DNA from: Actinomycetaceae bacterium
GTDB taxonomy: Bacteria; Actinomycetota; Actinomycetes; Actinomycetales; Actinomycetaceae
Direction: 5' to 3'
Length of the DNA: 54,519 nucleotides
Assembly: GCA_017934115.1 (NCBI GenBank)
Contig: JAGBKC010000025.1
Location: 1-54,519 of the forward strand
Positions within the stretch are counted from its first letter, which is position 1. Each line of letters opens with the position of its first letter. A program made the translations under genes and the position numbers. Shown piece after piece: positions 5,489-13,132 of this stretch. The notes beneath the pieces are model-generated. The model worked only from the letters and a program-made list of their open reading frames with translations, was not told where the DNA came from and searched no databases.

Positions 5489-7615
5489 ATGGCACATGAT
5501 GTTCTTACAGACCTGAAGAAGGTTCGTAACTTCGGTATTATGGCTCATATTGATGCCGGTAAAACTACATGTACAGAACGTATTTTGTACTACACAGGCA
5601 TCAACTATAAGATTGGTGAAACCCACGATGGTGGTTCTACTACCGACTGGATGGAACAAGAAAAAGAGCGCGGTATTACTATTACTTCCGCAGCAGTAAC
5701 AGCTTTCTGGAAGAATACTCAGTTCAATATTATTGACACCCCAGGCCACGTTGATTTCACGGTTGAAGTGGAACGTTCTTTGCGTGTTCTTGACGGCGCT
5801 GTCGCTGTTTTTGACGGTAAGGAAGGCGTGGAGCCACAGTCAGAGACTGTATGGCGTCAGGCTGACAAGTACGATGTTCCTCGTATTTGTTTCATTAACA
5901 AGATGGATAAACTTGGTGCTGATTTTGATTTCTCTGTTCAAACTTTGAAGGATCGTCTTCAAGCAACACCAGTGATCATGACTTTCCCAATTGGTGCGGA
6001 AAATGATTTCGAAGGTGTTGTTGATGTTCTTAAACAGAAGGCTATTTACTTCCCAGAGAAGGATGAAAAAGGCAACCCAACAATGGGTAATATCCTTGAA
6101 GAACGTGAAATTCCAGAAGATCTTAAAGCACGTGCAGAAGAATACTTCACTGAAGCTATGGAAAGCGCTGGTGAAGCAAATGAAGAGTTGATGGAGAAGT
6201 ATCTTGAAAATGGAGAACTCACCATCGACGAAATCAAAGAGGGCATTCGTATCCGTACACTTTCTTCGGATATTTACCCAGTTTACTGCGGTAGTGCTTA
6301 TAAGAATAAGGGTGTTCAGCCAATGCTTGATGGTGTGGTTGACTTCCTTCCTTCACCTCTTGATATCCCTGCTATTAAGGGTTTCAAGCCAGGTAAAGAA
6401 GATGAAGGTTACACTGAAGAACGCAAGGCAGATGAAAAAGAACCATTTGCAGCTCTTGCCTTCAAAGTCGCTGTTCATCCTTTCTATGGAAAACTTACCT
6501 ATGTTCGTGTTTACTCTGGTAAAGCAGAACAAGGTGCGCAAGTCCTTAATGCTACAAAGGGCAAGAAAGAACGCATCGGTAAGATGTTCCAAATGAAATC
6601 TAACGAAGAAATTCCTGTTGAAGTTGCACATGCAGGTCATATTTATGCCTTTGTTGGCTTAAAGGAAACAACGACAGGCGATACTTTGTGTGTTCAAAGT
6701 GACCCGGTTGTTTTGGAATCAATGACATTCCCAGAACCTGTTATTCATCAGGCGGTCGAGCCTAAGTCAAAGGGCGACCAAGAAAAACTTTCCATTGGCC
6801 TTCAGAAGTTGGCTGAGGAAGATCCAACATTTACTGTCCGTCAGGACGAAGAATCTGGTCAAACCGTGATTGGTGGTATGGGTGAACTTCACCTTGACAT
6901 CATCATTGACCGCCTCCGCCGTGAGTTCAAGGTGGAAGCTAATGTTGGTGCACCGATGGTGTCCTATCGTGAAACAATCCGCAAGGCTGTTGAACGAGTT
7001 GAATATACGCACAAGAAACAGACCGGTGGTTCTGGTCAGTTCGCTCGTGTTATCTGCTCTTTCGAGCCTTTGGAAGAAACAGAAGACGGTTCATTCTACG
7101 AATTCGTTGATAATGTTACTGGCGGTCGTGTTCCACGTGAATACATCCCATCGGTTGATCAAGGCATTCAAGAAGCTATGCAGGCAGGCGTGTTAGCTGG
7201 CTATCCTCTTGTTGGTGTTAAGGCAACACTTGAGGACGGTGCTTATCACGATGTCGATTCTTCGGAAATGGCATTCAAGATTGCTGGAAATCAAGTATTC
7301 AAAGAAGGTGCAAAGAGGGCAAATCCTGTTCTTCTTGAACCTATCATGGATGTGGAAGTGCGCACACCCGAAGAGTACATGGGTGATGTTATTGGTGATT
7401 TGAACTCTCGCCGTGGCATGATTAAATCCATGGAAGATGCGACGGGTGTGAAGATCGTCCGCGCAAATGTACCGCTCAGCGAGATGTTTGGTTACATCGG
7501 TGACCTTCGTTCTAAGACGCAGGGTCGCGCTGTGTATACAATGCAATTTGACTCCTATGCTGAAGTTCCAAAGGCTGTGGCAGATGAAGTCATCAGTAAA
7601 GCCCGGGGCGAGTGA
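5489..7615 (+). CDS. fusA: Elongation factor G
   Basis: 708 aa with the G1 motif AHIDAGKTT and DTPGHVDF, in str-operon position. Confidence 0.97.
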
Positions 7616-7713: not shown

Positions 7714-8904
7714 GTGGCAAAGGCCAAGTACGATAAGTCCAAGCCGCATATGAATATCGGCACCATCGGTCACGTTGATCACGGTAAGACAACTCTTACT
7801 GCTGCAATTACAAAGGTTCTTGCAGATAAGTATCCGGATCTTAACGAATATACACCTTTCGAAAACGTTGATAACGCTCCTGAAGAGCGCGATCGTGGCA
7901 TCACTATCAACGTTTCCCACGTTGAATATCAAACAGAAAAGCGTCACTATGCACACGTTGATGCTCCAGGCCACGCTGATTATGTGAAGAACATGATTAC
8001 AGGTGCTGCTCAGATGGACGGCGCAATCCTTGTTGTTGCTGCAACTGACGGCCCAATGGCTCAGACACGTGAGCACATCCTTCTTGCTCGCCAGGTTGGC
8101 GTGCCAAACATTCTTGTTGCTCTTAACAAGTCTGATATGGTCGACGACGAAGAACTCATCGAGCTCGTTGAAATGGAAATCCGTGAGGCTCTTTCCAACA
8201 ACGATTACGATGGCGACAACCTCCCAGTTGTGAAGGTTTCCGCATTGAAGGCTCTCGAAGGCGATGCGCAGTGGGTCGCAGCTGTTGAAGAGCTCATGAA
8301 CCAGGTTGATACATACTTCCCAGATCCAGTTCGCGATCTCGATAAGCCATTCCTCATGCCTATCGAAGACGTCTTCACTATTACTGGCCGTGGTACAGTT
8401 GTTACTGGTCGTGTTGAGCGCGGTCAGCTCAACATCAACGAAGAAGTCGAGATCATTGGTCTTCGTGAAACACAAACAACAACTGTTACAGGTATCGAAA
8501 TGTTCCACAAGCAAATGGACGTTGCTGATGCCGGTGAAAACTGCGGTCTTCTTCTCCGTGGTACAAAGCGTGAGGAAGTTGAACGTGGTCAGGTTGTTGC
8601 ACGCCCAGGTACTGTTACACCTCACACAGACTTCGAAGCACAGGTTTATGTGTTGAAGAAGGAAGAAGGTGGACGTCACAACCCATTCTTCTCGAACTAT
8701 CGCCCACAGTTCTACTTCCGTACAACAGACGTTACAGGCGTTATCACTCTTCCAGAAGGTACCGAAATGGTTATGCCTGGCGATAACACTGAAATGCATA
8801 TTGAGCTTATTCAGCCAATTGCTATGGAAGAAGGTCTCGGCTTCGCTATTCGTGAAGGTGGCCGTACTGTTGGTTCTGGTCGTGTTATCAAGATCAACAA
8901 GTAG
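7714..8904 (+). CDS. tuf: Elongation factor Tu
   Basis: 396 aa with GTG start after AGGAGG, plus [17 protein letters not shown] and NKSD motifs. Confidence 0.98.
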
Positions 8905-9309: not shown

Positions 9310-9351
9310 TTACTAGTACTAATATATTGTTATGCAAAAGGAGTGGAAGAA

Positions 9352-9624
9352 ATGACTACGGTAGGTATCAGTTTTAAGACTGACGCAGAAATAAAACGTG
9401 AAGCGGAAATTGTTTTAGGTGAGCTTGGCATATCCATGTCGGCGGCGCTCAACATTTTTTTGCGTGCCGTTGTGCGAGAAAATGGTATGCCCATCAATTT
9501 GCACCTCATACAGTTCAACCAAAGGACACGTGATGCTATAGAAGAGGGAGAACGCATCGCTTATGATGAAACAGTTCCTGCATATTCGTCCATGGAAGAA
9601 TTGAAGAAAGCACTTCTTTCATGA
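9352..9624 (+). CDS. Type II antitoxin, RelB/DinJ family (ribbon-helix-helix)
   Basis: MTTVGISFKTDAEIKREAEIVLGELGISMSAALNIFLRAVVRENGMPI is typical of DinJ/RelB. The ATG is 8 nt after AAAGGAG; the track ORF starts 9 nt earlier at GTG 9343. A 4-nt ATGA overlap links it to the toxin gene. Confidence 0.85.
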   Translation: MTTVGISFKTDAEIKREAEIVLGELGISMSAALNIFLRAVVRENGMPINLHLIQFNQRTRDAIEEGERIAYDETVPAYSSMEELKKALLS

Positions 9625-9902
9625 AATACAGTATCAAATTTACAAAGAGTTTCAAAAAAGACCTCAAGAAAGCACAAAAACAAGGAAAAGATCTTGACCT
9701 TTTATGGGGTGTGGTAGAAAAACTGGCAAACGCAGAACCATTAGAAGAAAAATACCGTGACCATCACCTTACTGGAAATAAGAAAAGATTGCGCGAATGT
9801 CACATAGAGTCAGACTGGCTACTGATTTACGCAGTTTATGATGATGTTCTAGTGCTAGCGCTCAACAGGGTAGGTTCACATTCTGAACTGTTCAAAAAAT
9901 GA
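9621..9902 (+). CDS. Type II toxin, YafQ/RelE-family mRNA interferase
   Basis: 93 aa. The ...YRDHHLTGNKKRLRECHIESDWLLIYAVYDDVLVLALNRVGSHSELF pattern matches YafQ-family toxins (DH.L.G...R.CHI..DWLLIY...R.GSHS.LF). Confidence 0.85.
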   Translation: MKYSIKFTKSFKKDLKKAQKQGKDLDLLWGVVEKLANAEPLEEKYRDHHLTGNKKRLRECHIESDWLLIYAVYDDVLVLALNRVGSHSELFKK

Positions 9903-10112: not shown

Positions 10113-10139
10113 CTTGCAGATATTCTGCAAGCCTTTTTT
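10113..10139 (+). terminator. Rho-independent terminator, a near copy of the tuf terminator
   Basis: CTTGCAG (10113-10119), loop ATATT, CTGCAAG (10125-10131), CC, then T6 (10134-10139). Confidence 0.65.
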
Positions 10140-10447: not shown

Positions 10448-10453
10448 TATAAT
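10448..10453 (+). promoter_or_regulatory. Possible -10 (TATAAT) upstream of the R-M operon
   Basis: TATAAT lies 57 nt upstream of ATG 10510. TTGCTA at 10429-10434 is only 13 nt away, which is sub-optimal spacing. The 10-mer AGTGATAAAA flanks the region (10362-10371 and 10461-10470). Confidence 0.25.
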
Positions 10454-10509
10454 AGTGTAGAGTGATAAAAGAGCAGATCATAGATATTAAGTGGATGATA
10501 GGTGTATGT

Positions 10510-11443
10510 ATGGAAAAAAGTGTGAGAAAATTACATCCTGTGGTGAAGTGGGCTGGCGGAAAAACTCAGCTTATTACTCAGATATCGAAGCGATATCCGC
10601 TCGAATTAGGTAAGAGTATCACCAAGTACGCTGAACCATTTGTTGGGGGGGGCAATCCTCTTTGATGTTTTAAGTTTATATGATCTTGATGAGGTCTATA
10701 TCAGTGATATTAACGGTGAACTCATTAATCTGTATTGTTGTATACGAGATAATGTAGATGAAATTATAAAAATTCTTAAAGAATATCAAGATGAATATAT
10801 ATACGCTGACACTGATGTTAGGGAAGAAATATTTTATGAAAAAAGAAATCACTACAATGAGCTTATAAAAAAAGGTTTCTCACATAATTCGATTGAATCA
10901 GCTGCCCTTTTTATTTTTCTTAATAGAACATGTTTTAACGGTTTATACCGAGTCAATAAAAAAGGTTTTTTTAATGTTCCTTGTGGTAAATACAAAAACC
11001 CTAAAATTTGCGATGAAAAAAATATAAGAGCCGTTTCGCATGCTTTGCAGCGTGTAACGATTGCATGTGGAGATTACCGTCAGTCTCTTGAGTTTATAGA
11101 TAAGAACACTTTTGTGTATATTGATCCTCCCTACCGGCCGTTGACTTTGACGTCGAACTTTACATCGTATGCAAAAAATGATTTTAATGACGATTCTCAA
11201 AAGGAATTGGCAGAATATGTCCACATTTTAAGGTCTAAAGGTGCAAAGGTCTTATTAAGTAATTCTGACCCGAAAAACGTTGATCCAAACGATGATTTCT
11301 TTGATTCATTGTATGCAGATTATCGAATCGAGCGTGTTGAAGCTAGCAGAATGATCAATTCTCGCGCAGATAAAAGAGGGCCGGTAAAAGAACTTCTTAT
11401 CTCTAATTATGAAGATGTAGCTGAAAGAGTTGAAGGTTGCTGA
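10510..11443 (+). pseudogene. Dam-class (D12, alpha) N6-adenine DNA methyltransferase, DpnM/M.MboIA-like, interrupted by a frameshift in a poly-G tract (possible phase-OFF state)
   Basis: The N-terminal piece (ATG 10510 after AGGTG) reads MEKSVRKLHPVVKWAGGKTQL...YAEPFVGGG and stops at 10663-10665. The remainder continues in another frame from the G-run to 11443: GGAILFDVL...FLNRTCFNGLYRVN...FVYIDPPYRPL. Together they make one full-length Dam-family enzyme. Confidence 0.85.
10645..10652 (+). repeat. Homopolymeric G8 tract inside motif I of the methyltransferase gene
   Basis: Counted directly: gtt GGGGGGGG caatcc. Either 7 or 10 G would restore a single reading frame. Confidence 0.95.
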
Positions 11444-11448
11444 GTGTC

Positions 11449-12309
11449 ATGAAGAGAGATTTTGATACATGGTTTGCATCTTTTAAAGGAAATATAGCAG
11501 ATTATAGTTATTACGTAGATTTTGATAAAGTGTATAAAAATGTTGATGATATGAAAATCGAGCTTCATATACTTAATTCTCTTATTGGTTCTGGAAATAT
11601 TGAAAAAGATTTTATAGATATTCTTCATCGCTACCCTGAAGTGCTGAGATGTATTCCTATTCTCTTAGCTGTGAGAAAGAAGGAAATACCCGTGACAGAT
11701 GAAAAAGGAGATCACGTATTTTCATTTCAAAAGTCAAAAAATACTGTCGATGAATATGTGCTTTTTATGAAACAAACAGGCTTGTTTGATCTTTTTGAAA
11801 AGCGAATCATTACTAATGTTGTCGATTATGTAACTGGAGTTGAAACAGGTTTAGATTCTAATGGTAGGAAGAATCGTGGCGGGCATTTAATGGAAAATCT
11901 TGTGGAAAGATACATCGTTTCTGCTGGTTTCATAAAATACAAAACCTACTTCAAAGAGATGTATATCCACGATATTGAAGAAAAATGGGCAGTTGATTTA
12001 TCTGCAATATCAAATGAAGGAAAAATGGAAAAGAGATTCGATTATGTGGTGAAAACTGACTCACAGATATATGTTGTTGAAACGAATTTCTATTCGAGTG
12101 GCGGTTCTAAATTGAATGAGACGGCGCGAAGCTATAAAACACTTGCTCAAGAAATTGCCACGATTAATGACCTTACTTTTGTGTGGTTTACGGATGGTAA
12201 GGGATGGAAACGAGCGAAGAATAATTTAGAAGAAACTTTTGATGTTATGGAGCATGTGTATAACATTCATGATTTGGCTTCTGGTGTTCTTAAAAAAGTA
12301 TGTGTGTGA
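11449..12309 (+). CDS. Type II restriction endonuclease, DpnII/MboI family (predicted GATC-specific)
   Basis: MKRDFDTWFASFKGNIADYSYYVDFDKVYKNV...LNSLIGS...DYVTGVETGLDSNGRKNRGGHLMENLVE resembles DpnII (DpnB)/R.MboI as I recall them, and the length is full. The track ORF begins at TTG 11437, overlapping the M1 stop. Confidence 0.82.
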   Translation: MKRDFDTWFASFKGNIADYSYYVDFDKVYKNVDDMKIELHILNSLIGSGNIEKDFIDILHRYPEVLRCIPILLAVRKKEIPVTDEKGDHVFSFQKSKNTVDEYVLFMKQTGLFDLFEKRIITNVVDYVTGVETGLDSNGRKNRGGHLMENLVERYIVSAGFIKYKTYFKEMYIHDIEEKWAVDLSAISNEGKMEKRFDYVVKTDSQIYVVETNFYSSGGSKLNETARSYKTLAQEIATINDLTFVWFTDGKGWKRAKNNLEETFDVMEHVYNIHDLASGVLKKVCV

Positions 12310-12334
12310 TGGATAGGTGTGAGGAGCTGAAAAG

Positions 12335-13084
12335 ATGAAGAGTAAAAAAATAGCACAATGGGAACCTGAAAATTTTGAACTTGAAATGACGACACATTGG
12401 TCTTTTCCACAGCGGGGAAGTTGGGCTACCCATGACGCAAAGTGGAGGGGGAATTGGTCTCCTTATATACCTCGTAATATTATTCTTCGATATTCTTCTG
12501 AAGGTGATCTTGTTTTAGATCAATTCGCAGGAGGCGGTACGACACTCGTTGAAGCGAAGCTGCTCAATAGGAATATTATCGGTGTAGATGTAAATGACGT
12601 GGCGCTAGATAGATGTAGAGAAAAAACTGATTTTGAGTATGAGAACGCTGACGGTAAAGTTTTTATTCGTAAGGGAGATGCGCGTCATCTAGATTTCATA
12701 GAAGATGAAAAAATTGACTTGATATGCACTCATCCGCCTTATGCTAATATCATCAAGTATAGTGATGGGTTGGAAGATGATTTATCTCAGTTGAAAGTTG
12801 ATGATTTTCTTAAAGAAATGAAAAAGGTTGCTTCTGAATCTTACCGTGTACTTAAAAGTGGAAAATATTGTGCCGTTCTTATGGGGGATACGAGAAAACA
12901 AGGGTACATGATCCCCATGTCATTTAGTGTTATGGACATTTTTCGTGATGCTGGTTTTACATTGAAAGAGCTTATTATCAAAGAGCAACACAATTGCAGG
13001 GCAACGGGATATTGGAAAACGAATAGTATCAAGTATAATTTTTTGCTTATTGCTCACGAATATTTGTTTGTTTTCAAAAAATAG
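12335..13084 (+). CDS. Second SAM-dependent (amino) methyltransferase of the R-M cluster; motif I precedes an HPPY catalytic motif
   Basis: 249 aa with LVLDQFAGGGTTLVEAKLLNRNIIGVDVN (motif I, aa 59-87) and DLICTHPPYANII (motif IV, aa 128-140; HPPY at nt 12731-12742). RBS GAGGAG lies upstream. Confidence 0.75.
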   Translation: MKSKKIAQWEPENFELEMTTHWSFPQRGSWATHDAKWRGNWSPYIPRNIILRYSSEGDLVLDQFAGGGTTLVEAKLLNRNIIGVDVNDVALDRCREKTDFEYENADGKVFIRKGDARHLDFIEDEKIDLICTHPPYANIIKYSDGLEDDLSQLKVDDFLKEMKKVASESYRVLKSGKYCAVLMGDTRKQGYMIPMSFSVMDIFRDAGFTLKELIIKEQHNCRATGYWKTNSIKYNFLLIAHEYLFVFKK

Positions 13085-13094
13085 AAGAGAATAT

Positions 13095-13132
13095 AAAGAT
13101 GGAGCGAAGAGTGTTGCTTCGCTCCATCTTTT
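13095..13132. terminator. Bidirectional terminator between the convergent methylase and adh genes
   Basis: AAAGATGGAGCGAAG (13095-13109) pairs with CTTCGCTCCATCTTT (13117-13131), giving a 12-bp GC-containing core, flanked by an A-run and a T-run. Confidence 0.75.

Follow-up and report, generated by a model that had tools for sequence, protein, structure and literature searches.

How can a cell keep a full-length restriction endonuclease gene when the methylase gene beside it is out of frame? This question is raised by a restriction-modification (R-M) operon of three tightly packed plus-strand genes, M1, R and M2, bounded by a hairpin on either side, in contig JAGBKC010000025.1 of an Actinomycetaceae bacterium (GCA_017934115.1). 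The window analysed comprised 54,519 nt of this contig, and coordinates refer to it unless noted. A sequence-only reading had described a frameshifted M1, a full-length R and a second methylase, M2, of 249 amino acids (aa), and each of these features was recovered at the same positions. It had also argued that protection of the host must fall to M2 as long as M1 is broken. We consider this reasonable; a mixed phase-variable population, reduced expression of R and a weakened R are possible as well. On a slight balance of probability, we favour the reading that the operon is an ordinary, acquired GATC cassette in which M1 is switched off by a slippage-prone tract, M2 protects the chromosome and translation of R is lowered.

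M1 is interrupted by a G tract in motif I

The profile TIGR00571 scored 241 bits on M1 against a cut-off of 115, which places this frameshifted gene in the Dam class. The frame that opens at ATG 10510 enters a run of eight G (G8) within motif I and ends at a premature TGA (10663-10665), and the C-terminal part of the protein continues in the +1 frame (Table 1). Ten G at this place would give FVGGGAILFD, which is the family consensus; with seven the frame would be kept too, at the cost of one glycine, and with eight it is lost. G10, reading FVGGGA, is evidently the ancestral state of M1 motif I.

M1 relatives read EPFVGGGAVLFD without interruption through the site of the tract. No run of more than five G was found at motif I in 68 relatives or in the nearest one, the glycines being encoded there by mixed GGN codons; the nearest relative (67% identical) reads GGT GGT GGA. 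In the present gene all three glycine codons of the motif are GGG, a codon that makes up 6 of the 44 glycine codons in the cassette outside the tract. The rest of M1 showed four deviations, all conservative, at 95 conserved columns, and none of the three genes appears to resemble an old pseudogene. A second assembly record (L083), identical to the window locus at 8749 of 8750 positions, has the same G8. Thus, M1 is off in the sequenced consensus, and the tract probably switches in length. It is plausible that the poly-G break is a phase switch buffered by M2.

Other long G/C runs in the genome

The source genome is a 1.46-Mb draft (41.7% GC) in 113 contigs, apparently derived from a metagenome and 94.6% complete. 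It contains 13 G/C runs of at least 8, several-fold more than the decay from shorter runs predicts. One of them, 8 G/C at C104:1481-1488, outside the window, splits a methylase of the Eco57I family (motif NPPY) into frames of 407 and 350 aa. One frame matched PF07669 over positions 13-93 and the other over positions 110-171, and the break falls just after NPPY. Some genes for large, signal-peptide-bearing surface proteins with Ig-like domains have a run of 8-11 G/C within them or a short distance upstream (Table 1), and these are candidate contingency loci. M1 has the sequence features of such a locus, namely a homopolymer of at least 8 inside an open reading frame (ORF), restricted to its lineage, with other such tracts in the genome. 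Because G8 is lineage-specific, a second methylase is split and further runs lie near surface-protein genes, the pattern of tracts fits slipped-strand contingency loci.

M2 is a circularly permuted methylase of the HPPY type

In M2, motif I (FAGGGTT, aa 64-70) comes before motif IV (THPPY, aa 132-136), with no large insert, and the segment THWSFPQRGSWATHDAKWRGNWSPY precedes motif I. PF01555 matched M2 in two swapped stretches: the N-terminal 90 residues correspond to the C-terminal part of the profile, and the residues from about 106 onward to its start. The same swap was seen against a solved beta-class enzyme, PDB 2zie, in which residues 226-291 match M2 aa 47-107 and residues 24-101 match aa 111-187. 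The DpnA-like protein of a locus from the same taxonomic family (L002, genome G022) gave swapped local matches only. Since the order is swapped relative to all three, M2 is a circularly permuted form of the beta-class N6_N4 fold, with a gamma- or Trm11-like linear order.

The L002 locus itself has the canonical dpnM-dpnA-dpnB arrangement, and its beta-class DpnA-like protein carries FADPPYF first and DPFVGSGTT last. DpnA-type second methylases are of the beta class with DPPY first and FxGxG last, whereas M2 has the opposite order and HPPY. Unlike in DpnA and M.MboIC, motif IV of M2 is not N-terminal to motif I, and its first residue is His133, not Asp, Asn or Ser. The sequence-only reading had called M2 not DpnA-like for these two features, the reversed motif order and the His in the (D/N/S)PPY position, and it was right on both. 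M2 would be a functional counterpart of DpnA and M.MboIC, though it is not their sequence-order homologue.

The REBASE-derived PADLOC profile MTase_II PDLC03376 ('Type II methyltransferase') matched M2 over its whole length (1-249/249, E 1e-145, 482 bits), and M2 is 80-86% identical to hundreds of protein clusters. HPPY is kept in 59 of 60 diverse family members and replaced by QPPY in the other; His as the first residue of motif IV is thus a hallmark of the family. All family-invariant columns are kept in M2, with four deviations, all conservative, at 169 conserved columns, and so are the signature blocks of the family (WSFPxRGxWATH..RGNW, the motif I GGGT, HPPY, GD.R, QHNC and HE(Y/H)).

An AlphaFold2 (AF2) model of M2, built on an alignment of 60 diverse sequences, had a predicted local distance difference test (pLDDT) value of 90; a model from a shallow alignment (80-85% identity) reached a pLDDT of 52 and was set aside. 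A Foldseek search with the model ranked archaeal Trm11 first, with a template modelling (TM) score of 0.57, in line with the gamma/Trm11-like layout proposed from the sequence. Foldseek aligns in sequence order; it therefore favours Trm11 and generic class I methylases and is blind to a permuted beta-class likeness. NCBI names the family 'TRM11 family SAM-dependent methyltransferase', and the 'TRM11 family' naming by annotation pipelines is a misnomer. A very abundant second methylase of the HPPY type is thus routinely mislabelled as a tRNA (TRM11) methyltransferase.

The M.EcoGIX-type single-strand plasmid methylases were also considered as the family of M2 and were excluded because they are beta-class enzymes with DPPY. 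Separately, a collinear orphan 'DNA adenine modification methylase' with about 30% identity is found on conjugative MOBH-type plasmids of hosts that include Vibrio, Shewanella and enterobacteria (e.g. L089:3992-4882). Plasmid records matching M2 numbered 856, of which 779 were conjugative.

The Dam-nuclease-M2 cassette is widespread

More than 7800 clusters are related to M2, and 521 matches were confirmed in species-representative genomes. Of 80 species loci that were fetched, 66 had a Dam-class M1 and a DpnII-family R together with M2. These families recur in this order in dozens of unrelated genomes, and the arrangement is therefore not due to chance. Among 300 evenly sampled Clostridia genomes, 45 had M2 and 27 the DpnII family, and 24 of these 27 also had M2, which adjoined R wherever coordinates of both were listed. 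A Dam-class gene was found in 36 of the 39 Clostridia genomes with a strong M2 match. On a Fusobacterium vincentii chromosome, a 76%-identical M2 ends a series of several close same-strand ORFs.

The nuclease slot between M1 and M2 is modular, and M1 and M2 are constant. Where the DpnII family is missing, and sometimes beside it, the slot holds a 178-aa PDDEXK_11 protein, Mrr-type nucleases, a MutH-like protein with an HNH protein, or a HARE-HTH protein (Table 1). In L019 and L015 it holds an uncharacterised ORF of about 310 aa, which looks nuclease-like by eye. Varied slot nucleases also accompany M2 members from other phyla that are 45-55% identical, and M2 is the last gene of a Dam and nuclease cassette in the window as well as in distant members.

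The arrangement had been taken as unusual, a view that did not survive this survey: in Clostridia, Fusobacteria and other groups, DpnII-family and related GATC cassettes ordinarily have the HPPY enzyme as their second methylase. The sequence-only reading had itself named membership of an ordinary second-methylase family as the outcome that would speak against it, and the counts of 66/80 loci and 24/27 genomes amount in substance to that outcome. In other respects the locus is best regarded as an unremarkable example of a type II GATC R-M cassette that is widespread. What is new in this copy is the lineage-specific poly-G break in M1; the second methylase was correctly described and is not novel.

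The DpnII family was found in just 2 of the 41 genomes around the window's own, and the top M2 matches are from gut Clostridia; the cassette therefore appears to have been acquired horizontally. Same-genus genomes were too divergent (tuf 77-83% at the DNA level) and too fragmented for an empty-site synteny comparison.

A subgroup of the HPPY type with intact motifs has no Dam gene in its vicinity and was found divergent to a nuclease that either is DpnI-like and methyl-directed or carries an NmeDI_C domain (Table 1). The two DpnI-like nuclease copies in these pairs are 79% identical.

Probable protection of the chromosome while M1 is off

R is a full-length endonuclease gene of the DpnII/MboI family. 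From its family membership and from the activity of R.SvaSI (PMC12675970), R is predicted to cleave unmethylated GATC and to be blocked by G6mATC. Its ORF was listed as 11437-12309, and the gene call in L083 corresponds to ATG 11449. This start lies 5 nt past the M1 stop codon (11441-11443), with only a weak Shine-Dalgarno sequence ahead of it.

We searched the 94.6%-complete assembly for a further PF02086 or PF01555 methylase and found none. This leaves M2 as the only candidate for protection in a cell with active R and M1 off. M2 probably methylates GATC, most likely at adenine N6. Hemimethylated GATC resists both DpnII and DpnI (PMC3812788), so that partial M2 activity could already suffice.

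We propose the following mechanism, in which the target and atom of M2, a tract that switches, and polarity on R are our inferences. The three glycine codons of M1 motif I would all have become GGG, giving a slippage-prone tract that now counts 8 G. Extension to G10 would restore FVGGGA, and a single -1 slip to G7 would also restore the frame. M2, translated from its own strong ribosome-binding site, would keep GATC at least hemimethylated and block DpnII-type cleavage. With M1 translation stopping about 780 nt upstream, R, whose own Shine-Dalgarno sequence is weak and whose start is 5 nt from the M1 stop, would probably lose translational coupling, and its synthesis would be lowered.

A more ambitious form of this proposal is a buffered type II phasevarion, in which M1 switches on and off by slipped-strand mispairing and can do so only through a constitutive M2 that restrains a DpnII-type nuclease by methylation, perhaps hemimethylation. 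We put it forward tentatively and think it somewhat unlikely. If it is true, the GATC methylation state, and possibly the strength of restriction through polarity on R, would toggle without killing the cell. Together with the second methylase split by 8 G/C, it would mean poly-G-driven epigenetic switching in a low-GC, apparently actinobacterial lineage. If the tract truly varies, the two-methylase architecture would let a type II system phase-vary safely.

Competing explanations

Several points weigh against the favoured reading of an acquired cassette with M1 off and M2 protecting. L083 is probably from the same sample, and hence no independent support for G8. No allele with M1 in frame was found: the best M1 identity among 5.8 billion proteins was 67%, with no close relative, and metagenome contigs, scanned twice for a pattern that allowed the G run to vary, gave no matching allele. 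Another methylase could be unassembled in a genome that is 94.6% complete. We found no published activity assay for M2 or other HPPY-type methylases in the searchable literature. None of the 300 Clostridia genomes had a clean R and M2 without M1; M1 and M2 are almost always retained together, which argues against M2 as a simple replacement of M1. Enzymes that bring duplex GATC fully to G6mATC would not be expected beside DpnI-like nucleases, where the HPPY subgroup lies. Finally, R itself deviates from its family at five of 141 conserved columns (N44H, H123R, L128V, G245D, E281A), and three of these changes, N44H, G245D and E281A, are non-conservative and fall at positions with little or no variation among 65 relatives.

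These three changes also speak for a decaying system, in which G8 would be a fixed inactivating mutation, R weakened or dead, and M2 a leftover with nothing to protect. R has been lost elsewhere with the methylases kept (the DpnII frame of G161 contains stops, and several loci are without R), and no lineage in its set is more divergent than this cassette. In the alignment of R, the conserved cores TGVETGLDSNGRKNRGGH and ETNFY..GSKLNETARSYK are intact, and the three invariant or nearly invariant positions are altered. A search for a solved structure of the DpnII family, for a check of catalytic residues, found none. Against decay, all three ORFs are full length save for the single tract, the few changes at conserved columns of M1 and M2 are conservative, and the break sits exactly in a lineage-specific homopolymer and not at a random site, with a second methylase of the genome broken likewise. 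We regard decay as unlikely.

A sequencing or assembly artefact would remove the paradox altogether, since the tract would really be in frame and M1 intact. The draft is fragmented and apparently metagenomic, long G runs are error-prone on several platforms, and the two split methylase genes both read exactly 8. A 2-base error would be needed to reach G10, however, and G8 is repeated in L083, though probably from the same data. Among A/T runs of at least 7 within ORFs, 538 were in frame against at most 10 possible splits; the assembly is therefore not generally prone to homopolymer errors, and a general explanation of this kind was ruled out. Other G/C runs of 8-11 were also assembled, three of them in frame. 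An artefact seems rather improbable.

We give still less weight, and little in all, to the explanation that M2 is not a duplex-GATC N6-adenine methylase. M2 would then act on single strands, hemimethylate, or modify another atom or sequence, and cells with M1 off would survive mainly because R is silenced by polarity. The family-wide His in place of D/N/S in motif IV is in keeping with this, as are the joint retention of M1 and M2 in 36/39 genomes, which suggests non-redundant roles, the subgroup that is divergent to DpnI-like or NmeDI_C nucleases without Dam, and the lack of a strong ribosome-binding site for R. That R-M systems of this type can include a methylase acting on single strands is known from DpnA (PMC3812788). 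On the other side, G6mATC is the sole consistent motif in Sneathia vaginalis, where the three genes are ordered alike, residual R expression without protection would still be lethal, and the best profile matches of M2 are DNA N6/N4 methylases. The G6mATC-only methylome of Sneathia and the single-molecule real-time (SMRT) methylome of Fusobacterium nucleatum ATCC 10953, which contains 6mA only, also argue weakly against a cytosine-N4 product of M2; presence of the cassette in the latter strain was not confirmed. For the HPPY family as a whole, the nuclease-paired subgroup hints at single-strand action, hemimethylation or subgroup-dependent specificity.

That M2 is a Trm11-type tRNA or rRNA methyltransferase, lying beside R-M genes by chance, is very improbable and was rejected: the Foldseek ranking, the NCBI name and weak matches to UPF0020 (31.8 bits) and TIGR01177 (44 bits) speak for it, but TIGR01177 has a cut-off of 316.55, M2 has no THUMP domain match, PF01555 scores 88 bits with a match that covers the DNA-methylase-specific segment before motif I, the place as last gene of Dam and nuclease cassettes is kept in dozens of unrelated genomes, and the gene is patchy (15% of Clostridia) and lies in low-GC islets, unlike a housekeeping RNA enzyme.

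Comparison with known systems

MboI has the gene order M1-R-M2, the same as this locus. The DpnII system of Streptococcus pneumoniae (dpnM-dpnA-dpnB) and MboI resemble it in having a Dam-class M1, a DpnII-family endonuclease and a second, small N6_N4 methylase; GATC specificity of the present locus would follow from this likeness. The single-strand activity of DpnA was shown by experiment, whereas the role of M2 is putative and derived from sequence.

A close known system is the SvaSI locus of Sneathia vaginalis SN35, with VC03_04590 (Dam), VC03_04585 (R.SvaSI) and VC03_04580 ('TRM11 family') (PMC12675970). Its M1 methylates and its R cleaves GATC, the methylome contains only G6mATC, and the authors call the function of the third gene unknown (PMC12675970). 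SvaSI is like the present locus in its Dam-class M1, its DpnII-like R and a third gene that shares its NCBI name with close relatives of M2; it differs in that M1 is intact and a poly-G tract was not reported. From its name and position, the third gene of SvaSI presumably belongs to the M2 family.

Iyer, Zhang and Aravind (2016) described a 'Clade 4' of unpermuted Group-1 N6A methylases with prokaryotic versions in DpnII R-M systems (PMC4738411). Eukaryotic (basal fungal) versions are fused to chromatin domains, and the clade was equated with DpnA (PMC4738411). The DpnA-like protein of L002, in contrast, is of the beta class and a different enzyme. We infer that the M2 family corresponds to 'Clade 4'. 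The M2 search also returned long multidomain SHPPY proteins, such as P0304. Three of these, P0304 (2246 aa), P0309 and P0312, of 1186-2246 aa, have low-complexity and zinc-finger-like regions and a C-terminal M2-type domain with SHPPY; they would fit the fungal members of 'Clade 4'.

M1 resembles phasevarions (simple-repeat mod genes of type III and hsd genes of type I) in having a homopolymer that puts a methylase ORF out of frame. Unlike them, it would be an orthodox type II methylase with a separate active endonuclease, so that the off state would normally be lethal and a second methylase would have to buffer it.

The only experimental paper on such a locus, that on SvaSI, left the third gene as 'function unknown'. 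Settling the activity of the HPPY methylase would annotate thousands of genes, and it bears on which methylation DNA needs for the engineering of gut Clostridia, Fusobacteria and Sneathia. In the present copy, nature supplies a genotype in which M1 is off while the R and M2 genes are intact.

Genomic setting and minor features

The R-M operon shares a low-GC islet just 3' of tuf (32-38% GC over 9-13 kb, against 44-48% in the flanks) with a toxin-antitoxin pair. The coordinates of all features are collected in Table 1.

Table 1. Positions of the features discussed (window coordinates, or record name and position where a record is named).
Feature	Position	Strand	Evidence or remark
M1 N-terminal fragment, Dam-class (alpha) N6-adenine methylase	10510-10665	+	PF02086 positions 1-32; KWAGGK segment and start of motif I (EPFVGGG)
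Homopolymer of 8 G in M1 motif I	10645-10652	+	frames 10510 mod 3 = 1, 10640 mod 3 = 2; out of frame
M1 C-terminal 262 codons, +1 frame, well preserved	10655-11443	+	PF02086 31-253, E 4e-52
R, DpnII/MboI-family type II endonuclease, full length	11449-12309	+	PF04556 1-278/278, E 5e-108; PADLOC REase_II E 1.5e-102
GAGGAG Shine-Dalgarno, 8 nt before M2 start	12321-12326	+	sequence; own translation start for M2
M2, putative HPPY-type circularly permuted N6_N4-family DNA methyltransferase, 249 aa	12335-13084	+	PF01555 88 bits
RelB/DinJ-type antitoxin	9343-9624	+	PF04221 E 1e-12; in islet upstream of R-M operon
YafQ-type toxin	9621-9902	+	PF15738 E 1.4e-33; in islet upstream of R-M operon
Terminator-like hairpin between toxin-antitoxin pair and R-M operon	10113-10131	+	consensus scan
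Hairpin, 15-bp stem, ends R-M operon, faces convergent adh gene	13095-13131	not assigned	terminator scan
Loci with varied nuclease slot	L009, L017, L022, L008, L039, L052, L080, L019/L015		between M1 and M2
Divergent methylase-nuclease pairs	L092:717-2458; L096:2504-4247; L093:2571-4259		L096 nuclease PADLOC mREase_II E 7.5e-65
G/C runs at surface-protein genes	C9:1041-1049; C68:7109-7116, 6472-6479; C71:4392-4401; C30:4494-4501; C31:37520-37530		

In the leader of the operon, a TATAAT-like box (10448-10453) is closely followed by a GATC site (10476-10479) that lies some 30 nt ahead of M1, and methylation-sensitive control of the operon is possible. GATC is under-represented in the source genome, with an observed/expected ratio of 0.73 under a second-order Markov model; of the 4-bp palindromes, only CTAG was lower (0.65).

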